DNA of 64,000 bases, taken from the NCBI GenBank assembly GCA_963716255.1, contig OY970303.1, forward strand, positions 192,001-256,000. Reading direction: 5' to 3'. This stretch comes from an uncultured Gemmatimonadales bacterium (lineage in GTDB: Bacteria > Gemmatimonadota > Gemmatimonadetes > Longimicrobiales > Longimicrobiaceae). The translations under genes and the position numbers were made by a program. The first letter of the stretch is position 1, and each line of letters begins with the position of its first letter. Of the stretch, positions 13,241 through 63,480 are shown in pieces. The notes under the pieces were generated by a model that saw only the letters and a list, made by a program, of their open reading frames with translations, did not search any database and was not told the origin of the DNA.

Positions 13241-13369
13241 GCGTGAGGGATTTCGGCCCGAAGGGGCGAGACCCGCGGGCAGTTTCGCGGGGCTCGACTC
13301 CGTTACGCACGGTTGTTTCGTGCGTTACGGAGCCGAAGCCCGACCCCGGCGCCAGCCGGGGGCACGCCC
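13241..13369 (-). repeat. Structured repeat family A (Flavo-1-like ends), copy 1
   Basis: GGGCGTGCCCC..GTCGGGCTTCGGC..GCCGAAATCCCTCACGC on the minus strand. Confidence 0.9.
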
Positions 13370-19106: not shown

Positions 19107-19239
19107 GGGCGTGACCCCCGCTGGCGCGGGGGTCGGGCTTCGGCTCCGTAGGGCTGCAAACAACGCAGCCCAACGGAGTCGAGACCCGGCGGAAACTGCC
19201 CCGCCGGGTCTCGCCCCTTCGGGCCGTAATCCCTCACGC
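19107..19239 (+). repeat. Structured repeat family A, copy 2
   Basis: Same frame as other copies, with compensatory variants in P2 and P4. Confidence 0.9.
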
Positions 19240-22150: not shown

Positions 22151-22279
22151 GGGCGTGCCCCCGGCTGACGCCGGGGTCGGGCTTCGGCTCCGTAAGCCCG
22201 CAAACAACGCGGGCTAACGGAGTCGAGCCCCGGCAAACCGCCGCCGGGTCTCGCCCCTCCGGGCCGAAATCCCTCACGC
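22151..22279 (+). repeat. Structured repeat family A, copy 3
   Basis: Direct sequence match to the family. Confidence 0.9.
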
Positions 22280-27885: not shown

Positions 27886-28014
27886 GGGCGTGCCCCCGGC
27901 TGGCGCCGGGGTCGGGCTTCGGCTCCGTAGGGCTGCAAACAACGCAGCCCAACGGAGTCGAGCCCCGGCAAACGGCCGCCGGGTCTCGCCCCTTCGGGCC
28001 GAAATCCCTCACGC
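27886..28014 (+). repeat. Structured repeat family A, copy 4
   Basis: Direct sequence match. Confidence 0.9.
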
Positions 28015-30264: not shown

Positions 30265-30479
30265 GGGGAACGGCAGTGCGGGCGTGCGGGAGTGAACGGC
30301 AGTACGAAGTACGCAGTACGTGAAAGCGCCCCGGCCGGGATCTCCCGGCGGGGGCGTCGGCCCTCACCCGGCTCGCTTGAGGCTCGCCACCCTCTCCCAA
30401 TTCTGGGAGAGGGGGTCAACAGCGTGTGCTTCGACAGGCGCCCGGAGTTGGGGGTCGGCCGGGGGAGGGGCCTGCCGTC

Positions 30480-30608
30480 GCGTGAGGGATTTCGGCCCGA
30501 AGGGGCGAGACCCGGCGGCAGTTTGCCGGGGCTCGACTCCGTTGCAGACGGTTGTTTCGTCTGCTACGGAGCCGCAGCCCGACCCCGGCGCCAGCCGGGG
30601 GCACGCCC
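30480..30608 (-). repeat. Structured repeat family A, copy 5
   Basis: Reverse-complement match. Confidence 0.9.
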
Positions 30609-31995: not shown

Positions 31996-32137
31996 TCCCA
32001 GAAGATGTCGCGGAGGGAGACCGCCGGCAGTTTGGCGGTCTCCCGCAGCCGGAGCGGAGACGGCGGGGCAGTTACCGCTGGCTCCGCGACCCGCGCAGGA
32101 GACGGACAGTAGTATCGTCCGGCTCCGGAGCGGCCCC
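31996..32137 (-). repeat. Structured repeat family D, copy 1 (subtype a)
   Basis: GCCGCTCCGGAGCC..TCTCCTGCGCGGG followed by hairpin arms. Confidence 0.85.
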
Positions 32138-34953: not shown

Positions 34954-35081
34954 GGGCGTGCCCCCGGCTGGCGCCGGGGTCGGGCTTCGGCTCCGTAAAG
35001 CACGATACAACTGTGCTTAACGGAGTCGAGCCCCGGCAAACTGCGCCGGGTCTCGCCCCTTCGGGCCGAAATCCCTCACGC
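34954..35081 (+). repeat. Structured repeat family A, copy 6
   Basis: Direct match; followed by GCTCGCGCTGGCGTCCGC and a partial B element. Confidence 0.9.
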
Positions 35082-38635: not shown

Positions 38636-38794
38636 GGGGCCGCTCCGGAGCCCGGCGATACGGCCGCCGGTCTCCTGCGCGGGTCGCGGAGCCAGCCGAA
38701 ACTGCCCGGCTGTCTCCGCTCCGGCTGCGGGAGCCTCGCCAAACCGCCGGCGAGTCTCCCTCCGCAAACGATTTGGGGGGTACTGCGGAACTGC
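38636..38794 (+). repeat. Structured repeat family D, copy 2 (subtype a)
   Basis: Three GAG-C-stem-loop-stem-T-CTC arms. Confidence 0.85.
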
Positions 38795-38832
38795 GGAACT
38801 GCGACGGCACGGCGGACGGCACCATCGCTTCC

Positions 38833-39219
38833 CTACGGCGCCAGCGCCTCGAACCGCGCCGCCACCTCGTCGGGGGAGCGCAGCCACGCCCGCGCCGCCG
38901 CGTGCACCCGACGAAGGCCCGGTCCCTCCATCTCCATCCCGTGGTTCCCCGCGTAGGCGATCCCCGGGATCCCGGCGCGCTCCCGGACGTCCGCCATCCC
39001 CCACCCGCTCACGACCGCCGCCCACACCCCGGGCGCGCCCAGCAGCCGGTCCAGCGCCGCGCGGGTCCGCTCCGGGATCGCCGCCAGCTCCGGCCGGGCC
39101 GCGATGGGCGCCAGCGTCCCGTCGAAGTCCAGCAGCAGCACCAGGCCCCCGCTCCGCCGCCAGGCCCCGCCCCACTCCGCCGCGCGCTCCAGCGCGTGCG
39201 GGAGCGCGCTTCCGCTCAC
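38833..39219 (-). pseudogene. otsB: Trehalose-6-phosphate phosphatase with a large internal in-frame deletion
   Basis: [12 protein letters not shown](W) and AGNHG are followed directly by the C-terminal tail; no cap domain or GDD motif; only 128 aa. Confidence 0.75.
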
Positions 39220-40780: not shown

Positions 40781-40909
40781 GGGCGTGCCCCCGGCTGGCG
40801 CCGGGGTCGGGCTTCGGCTCCGTAAGCCCGCAAACAACGCGGGCTAACGGAGTCGAGCCCCGGCAAACAGCCGCCGGGTCTCGCCCCTTCGGGCCGAAAT
40901 CCCTCACGC
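40781..40909 (+). repeat. Structured repeat family A, copy 7
   Basis: Direct match; nearly identical to copy 3. Confidence 0.9.
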
Positions 40910-41199
40910 TGGGTTCGCGCTGGCGTCCGCGAGTGCAGACCCCCTCACCCCCCCGGCCCCCTCTCCCCCGCAAGCGGGGGTAAGGGGGAGCACGACAAAG
41001 ACACGTGACAAGGCGAGGGTCAGGAAGCCCTCCCCCAGAATTGGGGGAGGGTGGCGAGCCTAAAGCGAGCCGGGTGGGGGCGCCCCCGCGGACGCAGCCC
41101 GATGTAAGCTCCGAGCACGAAAAATCCCCTCTCCCAGAATTGGGAGAGGGTGGCGAGCCTCAAGCGAGCCGGGTGAGGGCCGTGGTTGCAGGCTGCTCC

Positions 41200-41511
41200 C
41201 TATTCCCTGTTCCCTGGCTTTCCCGCCGCCTCCTCCACGGCGCGCCGGTGCCGCGGCCACACCGCGGTGGCGTAGCGCAGGAAGTTGGCGCGCTCCTCGG
41301 GGAGGTCGGCGAGGAACGACCAGGCGGCGCGGGAGGCCTTGCGCGTGTTGCAGGCCGCGCAGGCGGTCACCAGGTTCCCGGGCGTGTTGTCGCCGCCGCG
41401 CATGCGGGGCTGCACGTGGTCCAGGGTGAGCTGCTCCGCGGGAAAGACCCGGGCGCAGTAGACGCAGCGGAAGCCGTCGCGCGCGAAGACCCCCTCGCGG
41501 CCGGCCGCCAT
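41200..41511 (-). CDS. Small HNH endonuclease
   Basis: RDGFRCVYC, DHVQPR, NLVTACAACN. Confidence 0.85.
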   Translation of the reverse strand: MAAGREGVFARDGFRCVYCARVFPAEQLTLDHVQPRMRGGDNTPGNLVTACAACNTRKASRAAWSFLADLPEERANFLRYATAVWPRHRRAVEEAAGKPGNRE

Positions 41512-50122: not shown

Positions 50123-50253
50123 GGGCGTGCCCCCGGCTGGCGCCGGGGTCGGGCTTCGGCTCCGTAACGCACGATAAAACTGTGCGTAACGGAGTCGAGC
50201 CCCTGCGAAACTGCCCGCGGGGTCTCGCCCCTTCGGGCCGAAATCCCTCACGC
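50123..50253 (+). repeat. Structured repeat family A, copy 8
   Basis: Direct match with variant stems. Confidence 0.9.
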
Positions 50254-51321: not shown

Positions 51322-51449
51322 GGGCGTGCCCCCGGCTGCGCCGGGGTCGGGCTTCGGCTCCGTAGCAGACGAAACAACCGTCTGCAACGGAGTCGAGCCC
51401 CGGCAAACTGCCGCCGGGTCTCGCCCCTTCGGGCCGAAATCCCTCACGC
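51322..51449 (+). repeat. Structured repeat family A, copy 9
   Basis: Direct match; same P4 as copy 5. Confidence 0.9.
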
Positions 51450-55978: not shown

Positions 55979-56106
55979 GGGCGTGCCCCCGGCTGCGCCG
56001 GGGTCGGGCTTCGGCTCCGTAAGGCAGCAAACAACGCTGCCTTACGGAGTCGAGCCCGCGCAAAAAGCCGCGCGGTCTCGACCCTTCGGGCCGTAATCCC
56101 TCACGC
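55979..56106 (+). repeat. Structured repeat family A, copy 10
   Basis: Direct match with unique P4 AGGCAGC/GCTGCCT. Confidence 0.9.
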
Positions 56107-58726: not shown

Positions 58727-58882
58727 GCAGTTTCCGCAGTATCCCCCAGAATCCGGTCGGGGGGAGACAGCCGGGCGGTTTCGGCTGGCTCACCCCGGCG
58801 GAGGGAAACCCGGGGGCGGTTTCCCGGGGTTCCCGGAGCCCGCGCAGGAGACGGACGGCTGTATCGTCCGGCTCCGGAGCGG
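58727..58882 (-). repeat. Structured repeat family D, copy 3 (subtype b)
   Basis: Reverse-complement match to 61741..61899. Confidence 0.85.
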
Positions 58883-61740: not shown

Positions 61741-61899
61741 GGCCGCTCCGGAGCCGGACGATACTGCCGTCCGTCTCCTGCGCGGGCTACGGGAACCCCG
61801 CCAAACGGCCGGCGGGTTTCCCTCCGCCGGGGTGAGCCAGCCGAAACCGCCCGGCTGTCTCCCCCCGAACAGACTGTGGGGGGTACTGCGGGAACCGCA
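61741..61899 (+). repeat. Structured repeat family D, copy 4 (subtype b)
   Basis: Three hairpin arms; arms 2 and 3 in swapped order relative to copies 1-2. Confidence 0.85.
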
Positions 61900-63374: not shown

Positions 63375-63410
63375 CGAAGCCCGACCCCGGCGCCAGCCGG
63401 GGGCACGCCC
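63375..63410 (-). repeat. Family A 5' fragment
   Basis: GGGCGTGCCCCCGGCTGGCGCCGGGGTCGGGCTTCG fused to the CGCTGGCGTCCGC element. Confidence 0.8.
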
Positions 63411-63480
63411 GAACCGGTCGTACCAAGCCGGACGGAGCGGAATCTACGGCGGAGCGCCCCGCGTGGGGAGCGGCCACGAA

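Follow-up and report, generated by a model that had tools for sequence, protein, structure and literature searches.

A hairpin arm with a conserved mismatch is common to two chromosomal repeat families of Longimicrobiaceae and to an element of conjugative plasmids and Pf phages

Results

Two different repeats of the window carry the same hairpin module

Inspection of the window, the 64,000-nucleotide stretch of DNA analysed here from the genome of an uncultured Longimicrobiaceae bacterium (G000; 8.42 Mb, 73% GC), revealed a spacer between convergent genes that holds a repeat of a family termed D (38639..38765, plus strand in the AAAC-loop reading; the strand predicted to fold is the opposite one). 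Each of its three arms is a hairpin module that a descriptor search recognises on the plus strand, at 38648..38674 (with a 7-nt loop, ATACGGC), 38689..38716 and 38731..38758. On its 3' side the element is followed by an unpaired tail (38781..38820, +) in which WACNGC, the motif of the loops, is repeated. A repeat of a second family, A, is found at 40781..40909 (+; model match on the minus strand, 50.4 bits) and is homologous to an element of plasmids and Pf phages. Its P5 hairpin is another copy of the module (40855..40882, +). The GTC of this module, which reads GAC on the minus strand, does not vary in the superfamily alignment and is the point at which IS481-like elements are inserted at other sites in the genome. 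Two family-B (DUF559-type) hairpin repeats lie at 41026..41183 (+). Two side observations concern the same window: the trehalose-phosphatase gene (38833-39219) is ~400 bp shorter than in the relatives G002, G005 and G006, through either an internal deletion or an assembly error, and heptamer-type tandem repeats between genes (41194-41216 and 30270-30325) form a further class beside the A/D/B clusters.

A sequence-only reading of the window had described the module as a GAG/CTC base, a C·T mismatch, a 6-bp stem of free sequence and a fixed loop, reused by two otherwise different repeat families. All four modules that it quoted exist (starting at 38648, 38689, 38731 and 40855), and its estimate of roughly 20 instances in 64 kb agrees with the 19 hits of a strict descriptor (perfect 6-bp stem, 7-8 nt loop) and the 20 of a relaxed one. 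The reuse of one module on different scaffolds also holds, the module being present in family A as well as in family D. The remaining A copies of the window lie on the plus strand at 19107..19239 (with an 8-bp stem and an A-T pair replacing the mismatch), 22151..22279, 27886..28014, 34954..35081, 50123..50253 (7-bp stem), 51322..51449 and 55979..56106, and on the minus strand at 13241..13369 and 30480..30608; at 63375..63415 (-) there is only the 5' part of an A copy, from which P4-P6 are deleted. Further D copies occur at 32010..32134 (-), 58764..58874 (-; the span of three arms, one of them GAA/TTC) and 61742..61861 (+; one arm with a GAA/TTC base), and the GAA/TTC variants that had been reported for family D were located at 58805 and 61793.

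Across the genome, the strict descriptor finds 921 modules, as opposed to 0, 0, 0, 1 and 0 in five 3-mer block shuffles, and 888 of the 921 have an A[AT]ACN[GA]C loop. The mismatch is kept, as had been proposed: 1265 of the 1341 relaxed hits read GAGC/TCTC or GAAC/TTTC (1186 with a GAG/CTC and 79 with a GAA/TTC base around the C·T), and 53 read GAGA/TCTC. The module is genuine, and the original observation is confirmed in part; stem length, said to be fixed, is 6 bp in 958 hits, 7 in 153, 8 in 171 and 5 in 59, and the supposedly free stem sequence is limited to 23 distinct perfect 6-bp stems, which are common to both families.

The repeats are intergenic and follow a fixed order

Repeats that bear the module lie between genes at ~1,000 places in the G000 genome. 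By pattern, these comprise 769 copies of family A, nine of a variant termed A2 and 164 of family D (~200 in round figures); clustering of the modules themselves yields 213 multi-module groups. Together, the A, A2 and D elements make up 1.4% of the genome, and 940 of the 942 lie outside called genes, although the gene calls come from a codon model that misses atypical genes, so that counts of genomic context are approximate. A and D elements avoid divergent spacers and have their 5' end close to a gene, which in 510 A copies is at a median of 27 nt past a sense stop codon. Family B, with 441 hairpins of its type in the genome, follows within 300 nt 3' of 263 of the 769 A and 37 of the 164 D copies, and lies 5' of none. 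As a separate observation, the density of WACNGC per 60 nt is 0.97 5' of A and 2.04 3' of D against a background of 0.11, with no enrichment around lone B hairpins. All eight other genomes of the genus have family A, as do 4 of 16 further genera in the family, and near-identical A copies were found in Longimicrobiaceae and Gemmatimonadota records.

Family A has relatives on plasmids and in Pf phages

An HMM trained on 19 copies from outside Longimicrobiaceae (plasmid, phage and other phyla, none of them from F) has exactly ten hits in the window, which are the ten family-A copies, and recovers 710 of 769 A and 9 of 9 A2 copies of the genome, all on the reverse strand. The same model finds two copies on plasmid F and three on R46, and matches a Pf inovirus with an E-value of 1.7e-6. 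A second model, CM R1, whose structure string has one helix off by one column, gives full-length scores of 45-57 bits for the A copies of the window, 53 and 57 bits for those of F and 36 bits for Pf. These matches show family A to be homologous to the plasmid and Pf element; as a side observation, the nine A2 copies (e.g. C1:6138872) look nearer by eye to the Pf phage form (L377:4005-4091) than family A does. Neither the HMM nor CM R1 matched family D, which has no more than three weak matches on plasmids and which we tie to the plasmid element only through its shared arm, tips and mini-hairpins. Neither model matches phiX174 (NC_001422). CM R1 found no hit among the best 36 candidates of each of 120 other genomes of the phylum, in a search that also missed the divergent copies of G021 and so does not speak for absence.

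BLAST searches with the F copy matched 4401 plasmids (3391 conjugative) and with an IncN2-type copy 1858 (1606 conjugative), both as raw counts; a compact copy from a viral contig matched 743. In 13 annotated plasmid records, picked by hand from the BLAST lists and including many MOBF relatives, its surroundings are ssb, ard/klcA, DUF932, TrfB-like, radC or unnamed genes, or else tra genes adjoin it. Its position is syntenic across diverged plasmids: IncN1 and IncN2 have it after stbC, three records have it behind the TrfB-related gene, and in F it heads both Frpo repeats. All 13 records have the arm, with C·T in 12 and T·T in one, and among plasmid, phage and genome copies the base covaries (AAG/CTT, GTG/CAC, GAA/TTC) with the mismatch kept. 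On the reverse strand, G-A-C is invariant in 19 of 19 aligned copies. The Pf copy is carried by 21 Pseudomonas phage records and overlaps the end of a coding sequence. The loop, by comparison, had been taken for a conserved determinant and was seen only in Longimicrobiaceae: no AAACNGCC loop was seen outside this family, and the copies of G021, plasmids and phages keep the base and have other tips. In these alignments, the conserved part of the module is the mismatched base rather than the loop.

The matches listed for a pattern of the 5' end of family A come from Longimicrobiaceae, from numerous Bacteroidota, from some few Proteobacteria and Actinobacteria, and from 14 viral contigs. The 3' block of A, which was absent from the query, is also present in 51 of 53 matches with low-GC flanks, in all 14 viral ones and in 66 of the 78 others. 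CM R1 hits 26 of 30 Bacteroidota-type loci at E<=0.01, a partly circular result, since some training copies came from the same pattern. Of 51 Bacteroidota copies, 4 contain the module itself, 11 contain an AAGTCC/GGGCT arm instead and 36 are without either; the neighbours of the Bacteroidota copies are unrelated housekeeping genes, with no shared partner among them. When viral contigs were searched by loop pattern, the full module was present in 0 of the first 80 of 120 loci, which are chance matches, and a second viral-contig pattern gave two real elements. One copy of the element in a viral contig has a near-threshold hit to the pistol ribozyme (L223:3300-3379; 33 bits, cut-off 34.5) ~1 kb away.

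The strand that folds is probably single-stranded DNA

Examination of the plasmid and phage records indicates which strand may be functional. All HMM hits within one record have one orientation, and in 8 of 8 records in which the relaxase, T4CP, traM or stbABC fix the direction of transfer, the AAAC reading is co-oriented with the leading genes; the direction is ambiguous in L358, L359, L364, L365, L368 and L369. Leading-region genes are read from the T-strand (PMC11541004, available text), and therefore the T-strand would carry the reverse complement of the AAAC reading. The published ssiD and Frpo* candidates are printed in the orientation with the A·G form of the module. In Pf, it is the coding strand that bears the A·G form, and in inoviruses this is the virion strand. 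The folded strand is accordingly the antisense one on plasmids but the sense one in Pf, so that single-strandedness is the factor common to both, and the functional strand is likely to be the reverse complement, folded as DNA, because it is the presumed T-strand on plasmids and the virion strand in Pf. We infer that this is the plasmid strand that is transferred and that it folds in vivo. The strand quoted in the sequence-only reading would then be the opposite of the functional one, on which its C·T mismatch is an A·G pair.

The loops are consistent with this assignment. On the reverse strand, 671 of 765 P2 loops read C-GN(N)A-G, CGNAG occurs 5.0 times in each family-D copy on average, its N being free, and 1092 of 1101 eight-base loops can be closed by two G·T pairs. 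Mini-hairpins of the GNA type are far more stable in DNA than in RNA, bind SSB poorly and are present at the G4 origin, ssiA and N4 promoters (according to the available part of PMC13037366). Folding energy favours the reverse strand in 149 of 150 A and 119 of 120 D copies, partly as an effect of the G·T parameters. Against the reverse strand stand an A·C mismatch in P4 on that strand, 49 G·T stem pairs, mostly loop-closing, that favour the AAAC strand, and P6, for which the AAAC strand also offers a UNCG loop. In the chromosome, family A is not biased in replichore orientation (405 vs 364, p=0.15), and family D leans the opposite way in replichore orientation.

A structured RNA, whether a Flavo-1-like ncRNA or a 3'-UTR stabiliser in which the module provides a tertiary contact or a protein site, would account for compensatory change at 11 of 49 pairs in the ten window copies and for the short distance from sense stop codons to the 5' end of A, and would fit both the listing of Flavo-1 as an sRNA by Rfam and the sense bias of family D in co-directional spacers (63 vs 37, p=0.012). 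Family A, however, has no strand preference in such spacers (240 vs 216, p=0.28), the sense of the folded strand differs between plasmids and Pf, and the loop variants obey the DNA rules for GNA/GNNA. Flavo-1 hits in Flavobacterium psychrophilum are themselves indistinctly sense or antisense, with many outside transcribed regions (PMC9723704, in the text available). We consequently judge a structured RNA improbable, and the RNA tertiary contact that the sequence-only reading had offered is not borne out, as the folded strand tracks single-stranded DNA and not transcription.

Transposases single out the module, and no partner gene is flanked by A or D

An IS481-like element is inserted at the invariant base of the module in all eight of its copies, four of them full-length (C1:639708, 3218996, 4250341 and 4403782) and four short, ~270-bp non-autonomous derivatives (C1:443472, 1742883, 3578007 and 4484538). 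The insertions have a single orientation and a 3-bp duplication, with the right junction of one of them unlocated; the encoded protein scores 215 bits, just below the NF033577 cut-off of 224. Among 25 related IS481-like loci examined, insertion at this site recurs in five (54-95% identity), the remaining 20 lack a junction of this kind, and distant relatives adjoin family-B or heptamer repeats instead. An IS4 element lies in the P5 tip in four of four copies, with a 10-11-bp duplication that spans the loop. Both the base and the loop of the module are thus targeted by IS elements. An IS5-family element lies inside family-B hairpins in eight of nine listed copies (nine loci, e.g. C1:109537-110652), and IS5, which targets family B, is the only neighbour family enriched around the repeats. 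A further IS occupies the P4 loop of one A copy (C1:7602860-7604000). The IS481-like element was considered as a mobiliser of A and rejected: it is present in only three of nine genus genomes, and its ends are unlike those of A.

The suggestion that the module is a recognition unit for a protein therefore fares unevenly: two transposases single it out, and no cognate transposase or binding protein was found in partner searches of the genus genomes. A single DUF559 gene (C1:125190-125560) lies between inverted family-B hairpins, an arrangement that is REPtron-like with a nuclease other than Y1. The screen that recovered this gene as a positive control detected no gene family flanked by A or D, the 107 inverted A/D pairs enclose nothing or unrelated genes, and the uncalled ORFs between repeats are DUF559 and ISs only. 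Y1_Tnp (PF01797) is absent from G000; one of the eight other genomes of the genus has it, in an IS200-type gene that D adjoins on one side only, and DUF932 occurs in none of the nine. GIY-YIG gave two hits, within long ORFs, and the only reverse transcriptase of the genome is not flanked by repeats among the listed elements. As an observation in its own right, this reverse transcriptase (locus L215, C1:1014551-1018153; 520 aa, AT-rich) lies beside a small membrane-protein-like ORF of 260 aa, an arrangement that we take to resemble a defence locus.

Tips differ at orthologous sites

Alignment of orthologous copies in two relatives, over ~200 kb of G001, whose neighbouring genes are 95% identical, and over 395 kb of G008, shows that the scaffold is constant and the tips have changed. 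The P5 stem of A is different in all five pairs with G001 and in six of the seven with G008, and P4 in three of five and seven of seven, respectively. D arms differ in 11 of 15 and 18 of 21 pairs by automated comparison, which parsing offsets inflate, and in ~10 of 15 by eye for G001. Within copies, the P4 and P5 tips are almost independent of each other despite being 13 nt apart (Cramer's V 0.15, n=574, p=0.004), and tip cores are common to A and D. At one orthologous site, a rare P2 variant (11 of 769 copies) is common to both genomes and both other tips are different; exchange in place is favoured over re-insertion because this rare variant is shared while the other tips differ.

Concerted evolution without function, in which a degenerate plasmid relic was amplified by chance and its features copied by gene conversion or hairpin-templated repair, would explain the few stem variants, the high identity among copies and the confinement of the expansion to part of one family. 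We find it scarcely credible: the mismatch and the GAC persist from enterobacterial plasmids to Longimicrobiaceae as stems, loops and flanks turn over, and the loops keep the GNA rules.

Relatives also have empty sites, including that of the D element of the window, which is absent in G002, G005 and G006. The ends of the repeats are unlike the IS ends seen, and the empty sites are too diverged to display a target-site duplication; in contigs of four sequencing runs, in which repeat depth is high, a clean empty-site joint was not seen. Presence and absence at orthologous sites, sharp ends and unrelated flanks are what would be expected of a selfish, non-autonomous element that inserts into single-stranded DNA, with a nuclease acting in trans (DUF559 or another protein) that disseminates A/D+B units in a set orientation and recombines the tips through nicks at the module. 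Such an element would also explain the uniform strand on plasmids and in Pf, as insertion into exposed ssDNA, the lone DUF559 gene between inverted B hairpins with B never 5' of A or D, and a nearly free shuffling of tips over a 13-nt spacer that ordinary homologous recombination would achieve only with difficulty. The screen for flanked genes, with DUF559 as its control, found none for A or D, however; Y1_Tnp and DUF932 are present in one and none of nine genus genomes, and the plasmid copies are syntenic, by stbC, by the TrfB-related gene and at both Frpo heads. On balance, we think a selfish element of this kind unlikely, if a serious competitor.

As a side observation on the assembly, successive genes in C1:4878000-4913000 have high-identity paralogs at other places of the genome, reflecting either a duplicated segment or strain mixture.

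Discussion

Our preferred interpretation, which we consider probable, is that the repeats derive from a cis-element of conjugative elements and inoviruses that folds as single-stranded DNA, and that this element has expanded in the chromosome as a REP-like repeat homogenised tip by tip. The module would be one arm of a multi-hairpin DNA element that folds when the reverse-complement strand is single-stranded; on this strand, the arm would read GAG-A...G-CTC with an A·G pair and a loop that can be closed by G·T, flanked by C-GNA-G mini-hairpins. Family A would represent a ~770-copy chromosomal expansion of an element that conjugative plasmids and ICEs carry in their leading regions and that Pf inoviruses carry too, and family D a lineage-specific, three-arm array built of the same arm and mini-hairpins. 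On plasmids and phages, the element would resist coating by SSB and recruit a host priming or transcription protein, for which we infer that it serves as a landing site; the chromosomal copies may be REP-like passengers whose structure is kept. The earlier interpretation is thus supported in part, its reusable unit on varied scaffolds being upheld and the remainder not.

Several known systems adjoin the plasmid copies. A homolog (NC_002483, 58091-58172 and 63479-63560) forms the distal head of both ~535-bp repeats of F that contain Frpo1 and Frpo2 (ssiD), on the presumed T-strand (available text of PMC9849209, PMC11541004 and PMC12672017), and the F candidates Frpo*2 and Frpo*6 run into the homolog at their end, where it carries no annotation in the available text (PMC11541004). 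Plasmid homologs in eight records share the leading-region, T-strand location of class 1 Frpo/ssi sequences, but no sequence overlap with the published Frpo/ssiD fragments was found; in a comparison by eye, the F homolog lies ~95 nt outside the published ssiD fragment. Unlike Frpo and the ssDNA promoters of classes 1-3, the element is GC-rich and multi-branched, has no obvious -35/-10 on inspection of the alignment, and also occurs without a downstream gene (after stbC, beside IncP-1 trfA), in Pf and in chromosomes. With the CUP-controlled regulon of IncN1 and IncN2 (PMC5371602, in the portion available) the element may share part of its setting: in an IncN2-type plasmid, copies begin two ~400-bp leading-region repeats, and in R46 they lie upstream of ccgAI and ccgD; in contrast to that regulon, there is also a single copy per plasmid standing alone, after stbC.

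An n'-pas is a strand-specific ssDNA hairpin priming signal; no similarity in sequence or structure to a phiX174-type primosome assembly site was found. The priming signals of the G4 origin and of RSF1010 (ssiA) are strand-specific ssDNA hairpins with GNA/GNNA mini-hairpins, as here (PMC13037366, as available). Flavo-1 (RF01705) has three terminal blocks and the strand in common with the element (PMC2864571, text available in part), and among 20 Bacteroidota loci recovered through family-A ends, two reach the Rfam cut-off for Flavo-1, on the opposite strand, CM R1 finding both. The interior of family A differs from that of Flavo-1, and the evidence favours DNA over RNA. At the 42-bit gathering threshold, Flavo-1 has no hit in the window, and none in G000 at E<=10 among the best 150 of 200 candidates; Rfam otherwise yields no relevant hit in the window, the region or the plasmid loci.

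REP/BIME sequences, with their TnpA-REP (RAYT), are intergenic imperfect palindromes with a conserved mismatch, mosaic clusters and dedicated IS targets. The repeats described here resemble them in their hundreds of intergenic palindromes near stop codons, their conserved mismatch, their mosaic clusters and their specific targeting by IS elements. They differ in that no Y1 (HUH) transposase flanked by the repeats and no GTAG tag was seen, in their 130-nt branched fold, and in having a plasmid and inovirus homolog.

A broader proposal, which we find conceivable but would not back at even chances, is that one ssDNA cis-element, an A·G arm between GNA mini-hairpins, acts as a general start or landing signal, recognised by the host, on the single strands with which F, IncN, IncP-1, Tn4371-type ICEs and Pf inoviruses enter a cell, with Flavo-1 as its Bacteroidota form; Longimicrobiaceae would have amplified it to ~1,000 copies whose tips are swapped one by one by a dedicated mechanism, and a clade of IS481 would have specialised on the invariant base. 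The element is not named in the available portions of PMC2864571, PMC9723704, PMC5371602, PMC6294495, PMC12672017, PMC9849209, PMC13037366, PMC11541004 or bioRxiv 10.64898/2026.01.09.698686, and keyword searches returned no publication that links the plasmid, phage, Flavo-1 and Longimicrobiaceae pieces. In F, IncN and Pf it thus appears undescribed in the literature searched, although older ssi and CUP papers might describe the F or R46 copy, as might bioRxiv supplements. A defined element of ~82 nt would sit inside two well-studied systems, the Frpo repeats of F and the leading region of IncN, and in Pf phages, and its role in complementary-strand synthesis and early post-conjugation expression can be tested directly in Escherichia coli. 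If the proposal is true, Flavo-1 would be reassigned from ncRNA to structured DNA, and an origin would be suggested for a class of REP-like repeats without a Y1 transposase. The ~1,300 natural variants of the module, together with the IS481-like transposase, offer ready probes of the bases that are read.

As for how tips are exchanged in place, gene conversion may be the cause. Separately, nested hairpins are seen in some tips (e.g. in the regions of C1:109200 and 2690251), with loops like the upstream flank of A (TGAACTG), which suggests fold-back capture.
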